This document shows, piece by piece, positions 13,888-37,630 of a stretch of 39,625 nucleotides of DNA. The notes beneath the pieces were generated by a model that was not told the origin of the DNA, did no database searches, and worked only from the letters and a program-made list of their open reading frames with translations. The stretch's first letter is position 1. Every line of letters starts with the position of its first letter. A program made the translations under genes and the position numbers. The stretch comes from a virus (Duplodnaviria > Heunggongvirae > Uroviricota > Caudoviricetes), in IMG/VR virus record IMGVR_UViG_2545824712_000011; one strand, 5' to 3'.

Positions 13888-14772
13888 TTATTCGATTTTT
13901 GCGCCGGGGCATAATTTGTTGAATTCGTCTTGTTTCGCATCAGCACCGCCACCACGTACTTCCGGCTCTGGCTTGATGGCTTTCTTTGGTTTTGGAGCAA
14001 GGCTTACCTGTTTGCTAATCTGCCCCAAGAGGAATGCTGCGCGAATTGGATCTGTCTCAGCGGCTACACGCTGGCGTAATTGCTGGCTCTTACCTAAGCC
14101 ATAGGCGAGTAGTTCAGAGCCTTCGTCTGCACAGTGAATGATGATTTCCTGCTGAATTGGTGGTAGCTCACTAAGAACAATGGCTTCCATTTCCTGATAA
14201 TCTTTCACAGGAAGTTTGGCTGCCCGTTGTTTATGCGCTTCTACCCTTTGCTGGAAACGCTGCTGGTATTCCTGTTGCTGACGTAGTTTTTGTTGCTGCT
14301 GCTGTTCGACACGGCCTTTTTTCTCATGCCAATCAGTCAATGCCTGTTCAAACGCCTGTTCGTCATAATCACACGACTCAAGAGTCGGTTTTGGTGGAAT
14401 AGCGTCTGGTTGTGGTTGCTGATGTTCCGCTGGCTTGGCTAATGCTTCCTCAAGCTGGCGGCGCAACTCACGGTTTTCTTTCTGTGTTTCTTTGAAGCCT
14501 TTGCGAAGATCTTTCACCCATTGCGGTGCAGGTTGCCCGTCAATGTGATCATCATCGTCAGCGTTAAGCTGAATTTCTTCATCACCAATACGCAAGGCGT
14601 AATCTTCTGGTGTCTCTTCGGTTTTTTCAGGCTCAGTTGCCACCTCTTTACCGTTGTCATCCTGGCTTTCATTCTCAGGCTGTGACTCTGTTTGGATGAT
14701 GGTTTCTTCTGCATTTTCCTGTGCTTCAGACAGGTCAATAACCTGACCGTCGATGATCAGTTCGTTTTCCAT
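13888..14772 (-). CDS. Scaffolding protein
   Basis: 294 aa, highly acidic and Gln-rich helical composition, between portal and coat. Confidence 0.75.
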   Translation of the reverse strand: MENELIIDGQVIDLSEAQENAEETIIQTESQPENESQDDNGKEVATEPEKTEETPEDYALRIGDEEIQLNADDDDHIDGQPAPQWVKDLRKGFKETQKENRELRRQLEEALAKPAEHQQPQPDAIPPKPTLESCDYDEQAFEQALTDWHEKKGRVEQQQQQKLRQQQEYQQRFQQRVEAHKQRAAKLPVKDYQEMEAIVLSELPPIQQEIIIHCADEGSELLAYGLGKSQQLRQRVAAETDPIRAAFLLGQISKQVSLAPKPKKAIKPEPEVRGGGADAKQDEFNKLCPGAKIE

Positions 14773-14785
14773 TGATTACTCCTGG

Positions 14786-16912
14786 TTAACTCGGCATTAA
14801 GTCTGCCGGTGACTGTGGTGGTGACTGGAATTGCTGTTGTTGTGACTCGGCGACATCTTTCAGAAGGCGTATTGCCTCCATCACTGCTTTGTCATCGATG
14901 TTTCTGGCTTGAGCCAGTTTATAGACAGTGTTTGCCTGACTCTCCATCGCATCCTGCTGGGCAGTAAATGCTTTGATTTGAGTTTGAGCAGTTTCGTTAG
15001 TTGCTTTTTGCGCTTCTGCCTGCGCTGCTACCATTTGCGCCTGAGCGAGAACCATTTCAGGATTTGGCTGGCTTTGTGCTGCCATTTGCGCCTGTTGAAC
15101 AATCTGCTGCTCTTTCTCATTGCGTGGTTTTGCAATACCAGATATCAGCAGTTGGTTTCGGTTGTACTCTTTGAAGTCATCAAGGCCTTCGCCATCGATA
15201 TTGTCCAGAATAATACCCTGAATTGCCTGGCGCATTGGGTCTGTTGGAAGCATAGAGCTAAGGACATTTGTCAGTACAGAAACCGTTGCATCACGTCGTG
15301 CTGTGTAGCTTGGTCCAACATCAACCGTCACATCGTATCGACCGACAGAAAGGTCATTTAACGCAACAACAGCCCCTGTTTGCCTGTCAACAACCTGTGC
15401 GCTCAGGACAGCGATATCATCACTTCCATCTTCGTTAACGATGCGCACTTCACGTTCTGAACCGTACACTTCACGCGCCATTGACAGCCATACTTCACCA
15501 GCGCGTTTAAGACTTTTCGCCATATTGTCCAGATAGATAAACGAAGCCATATCTGCTCTGTTCATCAAGTTGTTAACCGTTTCCTGAGCAATATTACTTG
15601 GCATCTGCTGCATGGCCTGACTGCCGCCTGTAACCTCCTGAATATCAGCACTGGTTTGCTGTAGTAATGCAGCCAATGCCTGATTCATAACCGCAGGCTG
15701 TGTATATCCTGCCGGGGTAGCTCCAGCGATAATGTTGCCAGATTTATCTCTCACTTCGCGCAACGGCAAGAACGCTGGGCGTTTCTTGTTGCGAGCCTCC
15801 CAGTGCTTCTCAAGTCCACGAATTTGCTCCATGCCAACTATAGGGATCTGACCGGGGTCTTGCGCTGCAGTATCAGCCAGCATTGAAACCTGAAGGTTGT
15901 ACAAACGCTGTGGATCCATTGCTTTTGCAATGTGCCCTTCGACACGCTCAATGTCATCAATGAACCAGCGTTTTCCATAAACCGGGATGAGGGGGATATG
16001 CTCACCAGGAATACGTCGAGGTTTCTCAAGGAAACCATCACCATCCACTACGGATACATACACACGACGGCGCTTCACTGAGCGCCTTGCCACTTCCTGA
16101 AATCCAGCTATTGCCAGTTCATCTTCAATATCTTCAACCTGATCACTGTCGTATGTTGCAATCTCTCCAGTGATTGGATGTCGATAACTGATGACGTCAA
16201 CAGACTCTTTACGAACTTCGTAATACTTCGCTATGTAAATAACATCTGCACCAAACCAGTTATATTCCCAACTGGTCATAGACGTTACATCCAGAGAAGC
16301 AGGAGGTTTCTTTCCGTATTCAGCCTCATATTTTTCAGGTGACAACGAATACATACAGAACGCCCACAACGCGTCAGATTTGTCGTACTTCTTAGCGTCA
16401 GGGTCAAACCACACAGAGCGCGACGGGTCGTATATTGGTTCAATAGCAATACGCTGACGATCGTCCATGGGGTCGTATTCATTGACCAGCATCGACGTCA
16501 AACGGAAGCAACCGAAACCACCAGTAGCAGCGTCGTCAAATGCATTATCGCAAGCCTCACCGCCATCAGTTTCTTCGTAGTCAGCACGGAACAGACCATT
16601 TAATTTATTGGCTAACTCTTCGCTTGCCTCTCTGTCACCAGGACGAAACTTAACGGTGATTCTGTTATTGCGGTATTCTGCAATGATGCGGTTAAGTTCA
16701 GTTGCTACCTTATTGATTTCAAACTTAGGATACTTCTCGAACTGCTCATCAAGCTTAGTTCCAGCCGCCGTTGCTCCTTCCCATTGACCTCCGGGGACAC
16801 GAGCAAACCTCGTAGCTTCAATGCACTTTTCGCGCACTTCCTTCTGTGGAGAATAGGCGCGGTCAAACCTGAGCATGATCCGCTCATGTTTTTTCTCTAA
16901 TGTCTCTGCCAT
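14786..16912 (-). CDS. Portal protein
   Basis: Start MAETLEKKHERIM...; central region (YYEVRKESVDVISYRHPITGE..., GEHIPLIPVYG) resembles P22 gp1; directly downstream of terL. Confidence 0.85.
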   Translation of the reverse strand: MAETLEKKHERIMLRFDRAYSPQKEVREKCIEATRFARVPGGQWEGATAAGTKLDEQFEKYPKFEINKVATELNRIIAEYRNNRITVKFRPGDREASEELANKLNGLFRADYEETDGGEACDNAFDDAATGGFGCFRLTSMLVNEYDPMDDRQRIAIEPIYDPSRSVWFDPDAKKYDKSDALWAFCMYSLSPEKYEAEYGKKPPASLDVTSMTSWEYNWFGADVIYIAKYYEVRKESVDVISYRHPITGEIATYDSDQVEDIEDELAIAGFQEVARRSVKRRRVYVSVVDGDGFLEKPRRIPGEHIPLIPVYGKRWFIDDIERVEGHIAKAMDPQRLYNLQVSMLADTAAQDPGQIPIVGMEQIRGLEKHWEARNKKRPAFLPLREVRDKSGNIIAGATPAGYTQPAVMNQALAALLQQTSADIQEVTGGSQAMQQMPSNIAQETVNNLMNRADMASFIYLDNMAKSLKRAGEVWLSMAREVYGSEREVRIVNEDGSDDIAVLSAQVVDRQTGAVVALNDLSVGRYDVTVDVGPSYTARRDATVSVLTNVLSSMLPTDPMRQAIQGIILDNIDGEGLDDFKEYNRNQLLISGIAKPRNEKEQQIVQQAQMAAQSQPNPEMVLAQAQMVAAQAEAQKATNETAQTQIKAFTAQQDAMESQANTVYKLAQARNIDDKAVMEAIRLLKDVAESQQQQFQSPPQSPADLMPS

Positions 16913-33322: not shown

Positions 33323-33911
33323 TGATTCACATCTTACAGACGAAGTGGTTAACGCCGCTTTCGAAGGTACCAATTTCGGGCGCACTGATTTCCGCACCAT
33401 TCTGGCAGAAACAGTTATGAAGCGTGCTGCTGGCTATCACTCTGGCTACACGGCAACGACTATCTGTATTCGCCTGGGATTGCTTGGCAAACACGATCGC
33501 CCGACAAAACTCGGCCTGACCTTCGCTTTCCATCACTACTACAGGCCATGCGTTCGCGAAGCGCTGATTTCGCATAACAGCCTTGAAGTATGGGGCAAAA
33601 CTTGGAGCACAGGAGTCCGCCAAATGAGCAACATCAACAAACAGGCGCTGATTGCAAAAATCAAAAAGCAGGCCGAAAGCTTCGACACAGTGGTGTTGAG
33701 AGAGGATGAAGCTAACGCGCTGCTGGATGAGCTGGAAGCAGCAGAGAAGCGGATTGCTGAACTGGAAGCGCGGGAAATACTGCTCCCGGAACGTAGCAGC
33801 ATGCTTCATCGAACAGATTTTCACGAGGATTACCAAACGGTAATGGCATACAAAGTTTCTGAAGTCATCGATGCAATCCGCGCTACTGGCATTCGCATCA
33901 AAGGAGAGTGA
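33309..33911 (+). CDS. Hypothetical protein (ea region)
   Basis: 200-aa ORF overlapping neighbours. Confidence 0.5.
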   Translation: MSIVDDSHLTDEVVNAAFEGTNFGRTDFRTILAETVMKRAAGYHSGYTATTICIRLGLLGKHDRPTKLGLTFAFHHYYRPCVREALISHNSLEVWGKTWSTGVRQMSNINKQALIAKIKKQAESFDTVVLREDEANALLDELEAAEKRIAELEAREILLPERSSMLHRTDFHEDYQTVMAYKVSEVIDAIRATGIRIKGE

Positions 33912-33912
33912 G

Positions 33913-34488
33913 ATGAGCACTATCACTAAAGAACGTATCGAATTGTTCATTAAATCCCCGCTTGAAAACGGGCTTACCCGTGGCGAACAAATGGAACTGG
34001 CACGAATTGCGCTGGCATCACTGGAAGCAGAGCCTATTGGCGCATTCCACATTGCAGAACAGCAAGTTGACGGCACAAGTGACTACATCAAGGATGGGGA
34101 ATGGCCTATTGATAATGGGATTATTGAGGTCTACGCCGCCCCACCCATTCCAGTAGTACCTGAAGAAAAACCAATGCCTAACCCTCTTAAAATGTACGCG
34201 GTCGATGCTGTTGCCGCTATTGCAGAGGTGAGAGGCTGGAATGCCTGTCGTGCCGCTATGCTTCAGGGTAAATCCGAACAACCACAAAACGCACAACAAA
34301 ATATTCCGGAAAATATTCCCGGTGGCAACTCTCCGGTAACTCCGGATGGTTGGGTTATGGTGCCGAAGGAGCCAACTCAGGCCATGATTAAAGCGTGGCT
34401 ATCAGAGATTGCTAACTTTCGCGGTCATGCTGCTGGTTACAGGGCTGCTATAGAAGCAGCACCACAACTGGAGGTTAACCGTGGCTAA
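33913..34488 (+). CDS. Hypothetical protein (ea region)
   Basis: Start MSTITKERIELF... with GGAG upstream. Confidence 0.5.
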   Translation: MSTITKERIELFIKSPLENGLTRGEQMELARIALASLEAEPIGAFHIAEQQVDGTSDYIKDGEWPIDNGIIEVYAAPPIPVVPEEKPMPNPLKMYAVDAVAAIAEVRGWNACRAAMLQGKSEQPQNAQQNIPENIPGGNSPVTPDGWVMVPKEPTQAMIKAWLSEIANFRGHAAGYRAAIEAAPQLEVNRG

Positions 34489-34765
34489 CCTGCAACTTGC
34501 CGTCAAAGGTGAATACTTCGATGCCATGATTCGAGGAGAGAAAACGGAAGAGTATCGACTGTGTAATGACTACTGGGATAAGCGAATTATGTTCCGGGAA
34601 TATGACCGCCTGATTATCACAAAGGGATATCCGAAGCGTGACGATTCCAGCCGCAGAATTGACGTTCCGTATAGCGGCTATGAAATCAAGACAATCACAC
34701 ATCCGCACTTCGGCGATAAACCGGTAAAGGTGTTCGCGATAAAGGTGAATATCAGCAATGAATAA
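34481..34765 (+). CDS. Small hypothetical protein, possible ASCH/PUA-like fold
   Basis: GTG start with GGAGG upstream; KGEYFDAMIRGEKTEEYR resembles ASCH-type motif (weak). Confidence 0.4.
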   Translation: MANLQLAVKGEYFDAMIRGEKTEEYRLCNDYWDKRIMFREYDRLIITKGYPKRDDSSRRIDVPYSGYEIKTITHPHFGDKPVKVFAIKVNISNE

Positions 34766-34769
34766 CAAT

Positions 34770-34797
34770 CCTCGCGCTCGCGGGGATTTCTTTTATA
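34770..34797 (+). terminator. Hairpin plus T-tract
   Basis: CCTCGCG...CGCGGGG then ATTTCTTTTAT. Confidence 0.45.
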
Positions 34798-34807
34798 TGG
34801 GGATAAT

Positions 34808-35608
34808 ATGACCATCCACTTTCACGGCAGCCCAATATGGGGTGATGAGCATGCCCATACAGATATGCTGATTAAAGCCCTTTACCGTGATGGTGGGGCT
34901 TTTGTTTCATTTGCCAGACCAGAGCAGATGAAAAAGATTGCCATGTTCCCTTGTGATATACGCCTTGATAACGGTGCTTTTAGCGACTGGATGAAAGCAT
35001 TAAAGAAAGGCACTCCGGTAGACTGGAGTAAGAGACGAGCAAAATTCTACGACTTTGTTGGGAAGTGGTTCAGCAGAATTGAATGGTTTCTTATACCTGA
35101 CGTTATCGAAGGGACAGAGGCAGAAAACGACGAGCAGATTGAGTTGGTTCCTGATTGGCTAAAATCAAAAGCGGTTCCGGTCTGGCATACCGACGAATCA
35201 ATTGAACGTCTTTTACGCCTTTCTGGCAAATTTGAATGGGTGGCGATTGGATGCTGCGGCCCACACAGGCACATACGCTCTAAATGGTGGGAACAGAGAA
35301 TGGATGAAGTTTTCACTGAGCTTTATATCAATCGTAATTTGAAAGTGAAAATTCATGGTCTTCGAATGCTCGACGTGAGAGTTCTTGGTATGTATCCGTT
35401 CGCCAGTGCGGATTCTACTAATGTTGCTGTTAACGTACCGAAGACAGAGAAGCGATTTCCTGAGATTACCGACAAACTGGCACGCACAGCTGTACTTCGC
35501 GCTGCTATTGAAAAGGTGCACCCGCCATCGATATCAGCATGGGTAGACAGAAAGATGAGAGAGCCGGCGCAAGCCGGTTTTTTATTTGAATTCACCGACG
35601 CCGCTTAA
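34808..35608 (+). CDS. Hypothetical 266-aa protein flanked by 16-bp direct repeats
   Basis: Long ORF with GGGGA upstream; function not recognisable. Confidence 0.55.
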   Translation: MTIHFHGSPIWGDEHAHTDMLIKALYRDGGAFVSFARPEQMKKIAMFPCDIRLDNGAFSDWMKALKKGTPVDWSKRRAKFYDFVGKWFSRIEWFLIPDVIEGTEAENDEQIELVPDWLKSKAVPVWHTDESIERLLRLSGKFEWVAIGCCGPHRHIRSKWWEQRMDEVFTELYINRNLKVKIHGLRMLDVRVLGMYPFASADSTNVAVNVPKTEKRFPEITDKLARTAVLRAAIEKVHPPSISAWVDRKMREPAQAGFLFEFTDAA

Positions 35609-35626
35609 TGCGGATTTCTTTTATAT
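35598..35626 (+). terminator. Hairpin plus T-tract
   Basis: GCCGC-TTAAT-GCGG then ATTTCTTTTAT. Confidence 0.45.
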
Positions 35627-35666
35627 GAACTCGCTACGGCGGTTTTTGTTTTATGGAGATGATAAA

Positions 35667-35837
35667 TGCACTTCCGAGTCACAGGTGAATGGAATGGAGA
35701 GCCATTCGACAGGGTTATCGAAGCAGAGGACATCAACGACTGCTATAACCACTGGATGATATGGGCGCAGATAGCGCATGCAGACGTAACCAATATTCGA
35801 ATTGAAGAACTGAAAGAACACCAAGACGCCTGATGGC
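35667..35837 (+). CDS. Small hypothetical protein (not in ORF track)
   Basis: Hand translation MHFRVTGEWNGEPFDRVIEAEDINDCYNHWMIWAQIAHADVTNIRIEELKEHQDA; GGAGATG upstream. Confidence 0.45.
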
Positions 35838-35850
35838 GGTTTTTTATTGC
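35829..35850 (+). terminator. Hairpin plus T-tract
   Basis: CGCC-TGAT-GGCG then GTTTTTTATT. Confidence 0.4.
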
Positions 35851-35855
35851 CTGAT

Positions 35856-35871
35856 TTGCAGGTTCGATTCC
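35856..35871 (+). other. tRNA T-arm-like fragment TTGCAGGTTCGATTCC
   Basis: Canonical T-stem/T-loop sequence with no upstream tRNA body; 19 bp before xis ATG. Confidence 0.6.
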
Positions 35872-35890
35872 CTATTCGGAGATAGCACTC

Positions 35891-36091
35891 ATGCAACACG
35901 AACTACAGCCTGATTCCCTGGTTGATTTGAAATTCATCATGGCTGATACTGGCTTTGGTAAAACCTTCATCTACGACCGGATTAAGTCCGGCGACCTGCC
36001 AAAAGCCAAAGTTATCCACGGTCGAGCAAGATGGTTATATCGTGACCATTGTGAATTCAAAAATAAGCTCTTAAGCCGCGCCAATGGGTAA
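35891..36091 (+). CDS. xis: Excisionase / AlpA-family DNA-binding protein
   Basis: HTH-like FIMADTGFGKTFIYDRIKSGDLPKAKVIHGRARWLYRD; last gene of early-left operon. Confidence 0.7.
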   Translation: MQHELQPDSLVDLKFIMADTGFGKTFIYDRIKSGDLPKAKVIHGRARWLYRDHCEFKNKLLSRANG

Positions 36092-36164
36092 AATAGCGGG
36101 TAAAATATTTCTCACATCTAAAAAATACCATTCCAATCAACCCCCTGCCGCTTCAAGTAGATGT

Positions 36165-36179
36165 CTGCAGGGGACACCA
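36165..36179 (+). other. tRNA 3' end fragment CTGCAGGGGACACCA (att core candidate)
   Basis: Abuts exactly the T-arm fragment at 35856-35871 to form ...GCAGG-TTCGATT-CCTGC-AGGGGAC-A-CCA; 165 bp upstream of int. Confidence 0.65.
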
Positions 36180-36303
36180 TCCCGCCGTACACTACCGTCT
36201 ACCATTGTCTATAAACCCCATGTAACCATATAAAAATAAAGAGATTTTATTCTCATGACGTCCATTGCCGTCTATTGAAATCAAGTAAATCTATGGGGCA
36301 TAA

Positions 36304-36343
36304 TTGGGGGCATTGCTGGTTCGATTGTAAATGTGCCCCCAAT
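36304..36343 (+). promoter_or_regulatory. Stem-loop (9-bp stem TTGGGGGCA/TGCCCCCAA) ending 1 nt before int ATG
   Basis: Read directly; 21-nt loop contains GGTTCGATT. Confidence 0.6.
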
Positions 36344-37630
36344 ATGTCCAGAAATACCCTCAACAAATTAACAGACCGTCAGTGCAAAGCAGCTAAGCCA
36401 CGAGACAAAACTTATAAATTGTCTGATGGTGGTGGTCTTTATCTTGAAGTATCCCAGACCGGGTCGAAGTATTGGCGAATGAAGTATCGCCGCCCATCAG
36501 ATAAGAAAGAAGACAGACTTGCTTTTGGTGTATATCCAACCATTAGCTTACAAGACGCCAGAGAAAAACGAGACAACGCCAAAAAGTTGTTAGTCAAGGG
36601 GATAGATCCCAAAGCAGAGCAAAGAGCAGCAAAAGCAGAAGAAAAAGGTGCATTCACTTTTGAGACAATAGGACGTCAATGGGTTGAAAGCCACCAGATG
36701 TGGAACGAAGCCCACCGAAAACGCGTACTTAGAAGCCTTGAAATGTATATTTTCCCTCACATTGGCACTTCGGATATTCGCAAACTGGAGGCGATGACAA
36801 TTTTACCTTTGTTTAAGAAGGTAGATGACGCCGGGAAACACGATACAGCCAACCGACTTAAACAACGAGTTAAGGACATCATACATAGCGCCCGTCTGAG
36901 CGGCATTAAGACAGAAATCATCACGAATGATCTCGATGTCCGGTTAATGCAATATGAAACTAAGCATCATGCCGCACTACATCCCAGAGATTTACCAGAC
37001 TTTTTCACTCGATTGGGCAGCTTTAAAGGTAATCCTCTTACCCGCCTTGCCATTGAGCTAACCATGTTGACCTTTGTTCGTTCAAGCGAGTTAAGGTTTG
37101 CCCGTTGGAAAGAGTTTGACCTTGATCGGGCTGAGTGGATTATCCCTAAAAAAAGAGAGCCTATCGATGGTGTGAGGTTTTCCACCCGTGGCACAAAGAC
37201 GGGAAAAGACGAACATATCGTGCTTCTTAGCCGTCAGGCTGTTTCTATTGTAAAGCAGTTGAGAGAACTAAGCGGAAGCTACGATGTTGTGTTTCCGAAT
37301 GAAAGAAACACCAAAGGCGTGATGAGTGAAAACACGGTAAACAAGGCATTACGCTTAATGGGCTATAACACGCAAGAAGACGTAACTGGACATGGATTCC
37401 GTGCCACAGCCTGTAGTTCCCTGATGGAGTCCGGTTTGTGGCAGGAGGACGCAGTAGAGCGCCAGATGAGCCACAAAGAATATAAAGACGTTAAAAGAGC
37501 CTACAAGCACAAGGCTGATTACTTAGAAGAGCGCAAACTAATGCTTCAATGGTGGGCAGATTATCTGGACGCCAATCGAGAAATACACATAAGCCCTTAC
37601 GAGTTCGGAAGGAGAACACGCCGTGACTAA
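36344..37630 (+). CDS. int: Tyrosine integrase, P4 family
   Basis: N-terminus MSRNTLNKLTDRQCKAAKPRDKTYKLSDGGGLYLEV... and C-terminal HGFRAT...VKRAYKHKADYLEERKLMLQWWADYLD typical of P4-like integrases. Confidence 0.9.
   Translation: MSRNTLNKLTDRQCKAAKPRDKTYKLSDGGGLYLEVSQTGSKYWRMKYRRPSDKKEDRLAFGVYPTISLQDAREKRDNAKKLLVKGIDPKAEQRAAKAEEKGAFTFETIGRQWVESHQMWNEAHRKRVLRSLEMYIFPHIGTSDIRKLEAMTILPLFKKVDDAGKHDTANRLKQRVKDIIHSARLSGIKTEIITNDLDVRLMQYETKHHAALHPRDLPDFFTRLGSFKGNPLTRLAIELTMLTFVRSSELRFARWKEFDLDRAEWIIPKKREPIDGVRFSTRGTKTGKDEHIVLLSRQAVSIVKQLRELSGSYDVVFPNERNTKGVMSENTVNKALRLMGYNTQEDVTGHGFRATACSSLMESGLWQEDAVERQMSHKEYKDVKRAYKHKADYLEERKLMLQWWADYLDANREIHISPYEFGRRTRRD

Follow-up and report, generated by a model that had tools for sequence, protein, structure and literature searches.

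How did a single gene in the distal part of a prophage operon come to lie between two identical short repeats, and what does it encode? The question is raised by a 39,625-nucleotide (nt) stretch of virus DNA (Caudoviricetes; IMG/VR record IMGVR_UViG_2545824712_000011), referred to here over its whole length as the window. The exact 16-mer GGATTTCTTTTATATG occurs twice on its + strand, at 34784-34799 and 35612-35627, bracketing an open reading frame (ORF) of 266 amino acids (aa) at 34808..35608 (+ strand), as a preliminary description of the locus had reported. The 16-mer has just these two matches in the whole window with 2 mismatches tolerated, 0 of 100 shuffles yielded two, and by our own estimate chance would give ~0.01 exact 16-mer pairs less than 1 kb apart in DNA of this length. 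The explanation that we hold to be probable as a whole is that the ORF, a candidate singleton phage dpdA (TGT-like DNA guanine transglycosylase), was inserted by staggered microhomology crossovers in T-rich terminator sequence, and that it then spread as a DNA-modifying gene expressed by transcriptional read-through.

The insertion was located by comparison of filled and empty sites. In HF4s and HK022 the ASCH gene is followed by the tL4 hairpin, GGATTTCTTTTATCTG, AACTCGCTACGG.. and orf55, with one copy of the repeat and no dpdA, the site reading ...GCGGGGATTTCTTTTATCTGAACTCGCTACGG...; dpdA together with two copies is found in phage HK106 and at 38 IMG/VR loci. The gene is present in 82 of 5426 complete E. 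coli genomes (about 1.5%), E. coli W included, every copy being chromosomal, and the contiguous empty site is present in at least 502. In a sample of 120 IMG/VR loci carrying the right-hand linker, tL4 lies directly upstream of the linker in 112 (empty), dpdA in 5 and an unrelated ~330-bp cassette in 3. The presence or absence of the gene between the repeats in related prophages, which the preliminary description had offered as a check, is therefore borne out. It had also held that wide occurrence of the repeat as a generic terminator, without association with gene gain or loss, would speak against a cassette; the repeat does occur widely as a generic terminator tail, but it is doubled only where dpdA has been inserted. 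Comparison of the two states delimits an inserted cassette of 812 bp (34800..35611, + strand), which consists of a remnant of the ribosome-binding site (RBS; GGGATAAT), dpdA and 3 nt past the stop codon. The right copy passes unbroken into the empty-site sequence TATCTGAACTCGCTACGG....

Both junctions could be read at 31 filled loci. All have an identical left junction (..TTTTATATGGG, then G or A, then ATAATATG) and an identical right junction (..GCCGCTTAATGC joined to GGATTTCTTTTAT..), and this pair of junctions spans 14 upstream and 9 downstream contexts. Because every filled locus examined has the same two junctions, a single insertion event followed by spread among E. coli prophages is likely.

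Perfect identity of the two copies is a minority state among these 31 loci: the match is 16/16 in 4 (the window included), 15/16 in 21 and 14/16 in 6. At the 15/16 loci the left copy reads ..TATATG and the right copy ..TATCTG. The left copy ends in ATG at all 31 filled loci and the single-copy empty sites end in CTG in 119 of 120 cases, making the final ATG of the left copy specific to filled sites; the right copy ends in CTG, like the empty sites, at most filled loci. Since the left ATG is constant and the right end is mostly CTG, the stretch duplicated by descent appears to be the 13-mer GGATTTCTTTTAT and not the full 16-mer. The 16/16 match of the window, whose right copy reads ..TATATG, is a secondary C-to-A change or conversion in that copy.

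Some individual copies deserve mention. In a prophage of E. coli strain 573 (L051) dpdA is 100% identical over 801 bases, and the pL operon of the same prophage encodes a 'Nmad5 family putative nucleotide modification protein' (14670-15293). The gene was also found at 4508459-4509259 of NZ_CM135829.1, a 4.83-Mb assembly labelled E. coli DH5alpha, where it is unexpected for a K-12 derivative; the assembly may come from a mislabelled or lysogenised strain. The ATG at the end of the left repeat starts a mini-ORF of four codons (ATG GGG ATA ATA TGA; window 34797-34811) whose stop codon overlaps the dpdA start codon (ATGA), mimicking the overlap of yhhQ stop and dpdA start in relatives.

The repeat is the tail of tL4, made up of the last GG of the 3' stem arm and the tract ATTTCTTTTAT. 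The tL4-type element (34767..34798, + strand), recognized by terminator scan, folding and the annotation of HK022, has the stem-loop AATCCTCGCGCTCGCGGGGATT followed by the tract TCTTTTATAT; its 9-bp stem AAUCCUCGC-GCUC-GCGGGGAUU folds with about -13 to -14 kcal/mol (z = -2.6), and the identical element is labelled 'tL4 terminator' in the HK022 record X51962. The left copy (34784..34799, + strand) supplies the final bases of the 3' arm and the U-tract UUCUUUUAU, and a GC-rich hairpin directly followed by such a tract has the form of a rho-independent terminator, which is accordingly predicted here. The right copy (35612..35627, + strand), which runs on into empty-site sequence, is preceded by a mere 4-bp stem, CCGC-UUAAU-GCGG (35601..35613, + strand), that spans the stop codon and folds no better than shuffles (-6.8 kcal/mol, z = -1.2). 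The preliminary description had taken each copy for the T-tract of a hairpin terminator; this is upheld for the left copy and fails for the right one. The 4-bp stem would be a remnant of dpdA's own terminator, which lies intact over the stop codon in the diverged loci L037-L039 as GCCGCC-TAAG-GGCGGC-TTTTTT.

Two further hairpins lie close by. A terminator-like hairpin with a T-run (35558..35593, + strand; -17.9 kcal/mol, z = -4.3), also detected by the terminator scan and the strongest such element after the enzyme domain, falls within the last 15 codons of dpdA, where it encodes EPAQAGFLFEF. The hairpin is conserved in the subclade, and its stem is kept in homologues of 83-87% identity despite different loop bases. 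Because this hairpin lies in the coding sequence, and the C-terminal tail of the protein has a low predicted local distance difference test score (pLDDT) and is variable across the wider family, the dpdA ORF seems to extend through its own terminator. On the other side of the right repeat is a second linker hairpin with T-tract (35629..35652, + strand), which in relatives reads ACTCGCTACGGCG, A or G, GTTTTGTTTT. In the window it is weakened by a base change (GGCGGTTTTTG versus GGCGAGTTTTG or GGCGGGTTTTG in relatives) and folds no better than shuffled sequence. The conserved linker of tL4 hairpin, second hairpin and orf55 belongs to the distal pL operon of lambdoid and P22-like phages.

The preliminary description could not place the protein in a family; profile comparison now assigns it to the phage DpdA proteins. 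It matches PHROG 887 ("queuine tRNA-ribosyltransferase") with E = 3e-102, and the DpdA of phage 9g (DpdA1, a validated preQ0 DNA insertase) falls in the same PHROG with E = 7e-98. A profile of 40 sequences aligned to 9g DpdA with an hhalign probability of 95.2% (E = 2.7e-8) and ~25% identity over 151 columns, and the motifs LDNGAFS/LDSGAFS, VPVWH/LPCFH, KIHGL/KVHGF and SADST/SCDSS are in register. Every named match in BFVD is a phage queuine tRNA-ribosyltransferase, and the protein has the TGT-like TIM-barrel fold, the chain ending ~15 residues past the barrel. Residues D54, D98, H127, H183, D189 and D202 are invariant among the 40 homologues; D54 (LDNGAFS), H127, H183-G184 and D202-S203 fall in line with motifs of 9g DpdA, and D54, H127 and D202 may, by spacing only, correspond to D95, H181 and D256 of bacterial DpdA. 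The orthologue in HK106 (YP_007151699, gp29) is listed among the "DpdA only" phages by Hutinet et al. 2019 (PMC6884629, Supplementary Data 1), in whose similarity network the singletons form a cluster apart from DpdA1. A literature search turned up no main-text study of HK106 or of singleton DpdA function. Two other families were compared. From the tRNA-guanine transglycosylases (Pfam TGT, PF01702) the protein differs in having neither a match to the model nor a C-terminal Cys/His zinc site. From the DpdA of Salmonella Montevideo (PDB 7UI4; 413 aa versus 266) it differs in its 16% identity and in giving no PADLOC match, and its setting is that of a phage, with ea genes, xis and int as neighbors, in place of a defence island with the partners dpdB-K.

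The neighborhoods of diverged homologues bear on function. At 76-87% amino-acid identity (L032-L041) the gene has no tL4 upstream, and a member of the Vut_1/YhhQ family overlaps its start codon (L033 2306-3001; L037 2540-3001; L038 2501-3001), the family of the queuosine-precursor (preQ0) transporter, with matches that score 31-37 bits where the gathering score is 27.2; in these relatives the yhhQ-dpdA pair is located directly before xis and int. In a Pantoea dispersa prophage (L052 3974-6095) a gene for a Dam methyltransferase follows directly after dpdA, and the 460-aa protein P0006, 76% identical to the query, is a DpdA-Dam fusion with PF05869 at residues 283-452. The coupling to YhhQ and the adjacency or fusion to Dam suggest a 7-deazaguanine as the precursor and DNA as the target. 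E. coli itself makes preQ0 (7-cyano-7-deazaguanine). The 9g enzyme, expressed alone in E. coli, puts host preQ0 into plasmid DNA, and the hosts of DpdA-only phages have genes for the whole queuosine pathway (PMC6884629). Judged by homology and genomic context, the dpdA product most likely swaps guanine in phage DNA, after replication, for host-made preQ0, blunting restriction.

The strongest competitor is that the protein does something other than insert preQ0 into phage DNA, such as acting on tRNA, inserting another base, serving as a glycosylase or anti-defence factor, or modifying the DNA of the lysogen; we regard this as unlikely, with a real share of the probability left to it. It draws on several findings that weigh against the function just proposed. 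The authors who described the family treat the gamma-proteobacterial singleton DpdAs as a cluster of their own whose function has perhaps diverged and needs study (Hutinet et al., PMC6884629). Searches returned no match in Pfam (E <= 0.1), NCBIfam (E <= 1), the PADLOC DpdA models (E <= 1) or, with single sequence and profile, PDB sequences. No invariant Cys that could serve a TGT-type zinc site exists in the 40-sequence alignment, and the protein is short beside bacterial DpdA. The 39.6-kb window holds no folE, queD, queE, queC, yhhQ or dam among its genes, so that precursor synthesis is not encoded with the enzyme. Against the competitor stand the PHROG and the aligned motifs held in common with 9g DpdA, for which Pfam TGT gives no match either, the translational coupling of close homologues to the transporter and the link of more distant ones to Dam, and the ability of 9g DpdA to work alone on preQ0 that E. 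coli supplies.

The diverged loci also suggest how the cassette may have arisen. The probable donor would be a yhhQ-dpdA module carried by related temperate phages of enterobacteria, from which an 812-bp segment carrying dpdA, a few upstream RBS bases and the 5' half of its own stop-spanning terminator would have been spliced into the tL4 linker. The left crossover would have taken place at the 3' end of the tL4 T-tract, between CTTTTAT and the ATTTTAA just upstream of dpdA, and the right one within the GCGG of the 3' stem arms of both terminators. On the left side of the window the tL4 tract (CTTTTAT) is directly followed by a purine-rich ..GATAAT-ATG that resembles the 3' end of yhhQ with the dpdA RBS (ATTTTAAGGAAAAGATAATG in L038). 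On the right, GCCGC-TTAAT-GCGG followed by ATTTCTTTTAT can be read as the 5' arm of the dpdA terminator joined within GCGG to the 3' arm and tract of tL4. With the two crossovers staggered, ~13 bp (GGATTTCTTTTAT) would be present on both sides. Later movement among E. coli prophages would have relied on homologous recombination, both in the conserved flanks and inside dpdA. An example of the latter is L036 (3001-3801), a chimeric dpdA in which the 5' ~600 nt belong to the yhhQ-linked, L033-like lineage and the 3' ~200 nt to the window type, followed by the tL4-tail junction, with yhhQ upstream and the lambdoid linker downstream; homologous recombination inside dpdA therefore also shifts the gene between contexts. 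The reading of L036 as an intermediate, with the old left context and the new right junction, was dropped, the sequence being a chimera.

This reconstruction has difficulties of its own. No dpdA between 87% and 99% identity was found, hence no direct donor, and the crossover points are for this reason deduced from relatives that are further removed. Between the left repeat and the dpdA start codon lie 11 nt that are only loosely like the 3' end of yhhQ. Finally, deletion between the repeats would leave the same empty site, so the direction of the event is not proven.

The reverse order of events, in which dpdA is ancestral at this site, the empty sites stem from repeated deletions between the repeats (by slippage or short-homology recombination) and the repeats mark loss, is accordingly the next account to weigh, and it is improbable. 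Deletion between repeats of 13-16 bp gives exactly the single-copy site that is seen, and some losses are plausible in view of the empty locus L179. This locus (~8848) is the sole one of the 120 single-copy sites that reads ..TATATG, the cassette-type ending, and on its right flank it shares 98.6% identity with the filled L019; it is possibly the product of a deletion between repeats. As a recent precise-excision partner of L019 it was rejected, because the left flank of L179 is mosaic and the pair is not clean. What ancestral dpdA leaves unexplained is the source of the repeats. The right copy lacks the 5' arm of tL4 and is fused to the remnant of a different terminator, and the other 119 single-copy sites read CTG and not the ATG of the left copy. 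Empty sites outnumber filled ones by over 6 to 1 and occur in far more contexts, and the diverged dpdA homologues occupy another module, the yhhQ-dpdA pair without tL4.

Insertion by staggered crossover also accounts better for the repeats than does a target-site duplication made by a transposase or site-specific recombinase, for which the chance is very small. Direct repeats do flank a single-gene insert precisely, and other cassettes join at the same repeat edges. In the Stx2a phage LC645439 (L096 608-937), and also in L120, an AT-rich cassette of ~330 bp with an ORF of 61-63 aa (phrog_16329) stands in place of the tL4 stem; its joint lies exactly at the 5' edge of GGATTTCTTTTAT, and there is no second copy of the repeat. 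A consensus scan found no promoter clearly serving this cassette. In L023 (3805-4135) a phrog_1229 gene replaces the second hairpin and orf55 after the right repeat, the joint lying right after ..TTTTATCT (..TATCT). Short conserved intergenic linkers act as mosaic joints in lambdoid phages, and the reuse of the repeat edges in the Stx2a phage and L023 fits this behavior. For a transposon, the repeat scan found no terminal inverted repeats, the only ORF of the cassette encodes a TIM-barrel enzyme and no recombinase, and a duplication of 13-16 bp is atypically long; the Stx cassette replaces the tL4 stem and leaves a single repeat copy, and the right junction is accounted for by microhomology between the two terminators. 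With neither inverted repeats nor a recombinase in the cassette, a transposon origin was rejected. Least probable of all is that the copies are independent, convergent terminator T-tracts alike by chance or functional constraint: the sequence is T-rich and of low complexity, and a similar tract belongs to the terminator that dpdA itself has in relatives (GCGGCTTCTTTTTTG in L039), but the empty-site comparison refutes this, the right copy continuing into empty-site sequence as described above and its GGATTTC part matching tL4 and not the dpdA terminator.

The surroundings of the cassette bear on how dpdA may be expressed. In filled and empty sites alike the left neighbor is the ASCH-like gene (94 aa, phrog_625; 34481..34765) and the right neighbor the orf55-like gene (55 aa, phrog_676; 35666..35833), which is followed in the window by an excisionase gene (35891..36091; annotated TorI/xis in relatives) and, at the distal end of the operon, by an integrase gene (36275..37630; Arm-DNA-bind_3, Phage_int_M and Phage_integrase), all on the + strand. 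The integrase ORF has a TTG start and 451 aa, with the Arm-DNA-binding domain from residue 32, and its true start is probably downstream. Genes for the repressor, a Rad52-type recombinase, SSB and Abc2, ea-type genes, ASCH, dpdA, orf55, xis and int are on the + strand throughout, and the run from repressor to int is the pL operon of a P22-like prophage. A consensus scan of the + strand over 33800-36300 found no sigma-70-like site; weak or other promoter types could escape such a scan. With no promoter of its own detected, expression in the lysogen is not expected, and dpdA is probably expressed only from pL, through antiterminated read-through of tL4, in lytic growth.

Morons, a class reportedly defined by Hendrix and colleagues, provide the obvious comparison, and the preliminary description had suggested a cassette-style moron insertion. 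The cassette part of this is supported by the empty and filled sites; the moron part is not. The gene is present or absent between constant neighbors and has a predicted terminator of its own in the hairpin at 35558-35593, but the scan detected no promoter, and since the gene also lies inside the pL operon behind tL4, we infer that it is an accessory cassette embedded in an operon rather than a classical moron. There is no sharp break in GC content, which is about 44-45% in the cassette and 47-50% in the flanks.

Lambdoid phages exchange modules at short conserved intergenic linker or boundary sequences. The locus resembles these exchanges in having a single accessory gene present or absent within conserved flanks, joints at a terminator, and edges reused by unrelated cassettes. 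It differs from moron and linker systems in that the dpdA cassette has no detected promoter and that its 13-16-bp duplication would be a by-product of staggered crossover and not a functional recombination site. The nearest known counterpart is HK106, a siphovirus, in which the orthologous gp29 is 97% identical in nucleotide sequence over gene and junctions and has the same tL4 upstream, the same right junction and orf55. HK106 differs from the P22-like prophage of the window in having a 29-aa ORF in place of ASCH as the upstream gene and a right repeat, GGGTTTCTTTTATCTG, that matches at 14/16.

The locus is thus an ordinary mosaic junction around a catalogued gene, the gene family, the HK106 orthologue and the type of junction all being known already. 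It opens no new category, because the orthologue was catalogued in 2019 and lambdoid phages routinely have mosaic joints at terminators. What it adds is a clean before-and-after pair of likely single origin, in which an accessory gene enters a conserved terminator linker and then spreads. The YhhQ coupling and the Dam adjacency and fusion strengthen the 7-deazaguanine and DNA reading for the singleton clade, and phage HK106 and the E. coli W prophage are easy test systems. In E. coli genomes the gene is still labelled "hypothetical protein" by RefSeq. We put forward, tentatively and with somewhat less than even confidence, that lambdoid and P22-like temperate coliphages with this lone DpdA replace some of their guanines with a 7-deazaguanine drawn wholly from the host queuosine-precursor pool, or else that the clade has diverged in substrate or target. 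If the replacement is real, no classical temperate coliphage before these would have been known to carry deazaguanine in its DNA, and the dpdA cassette would be a minimal, one-gene anti-restriction module, shuffled horizontally and derived from a yhhQ-dpdA pair.

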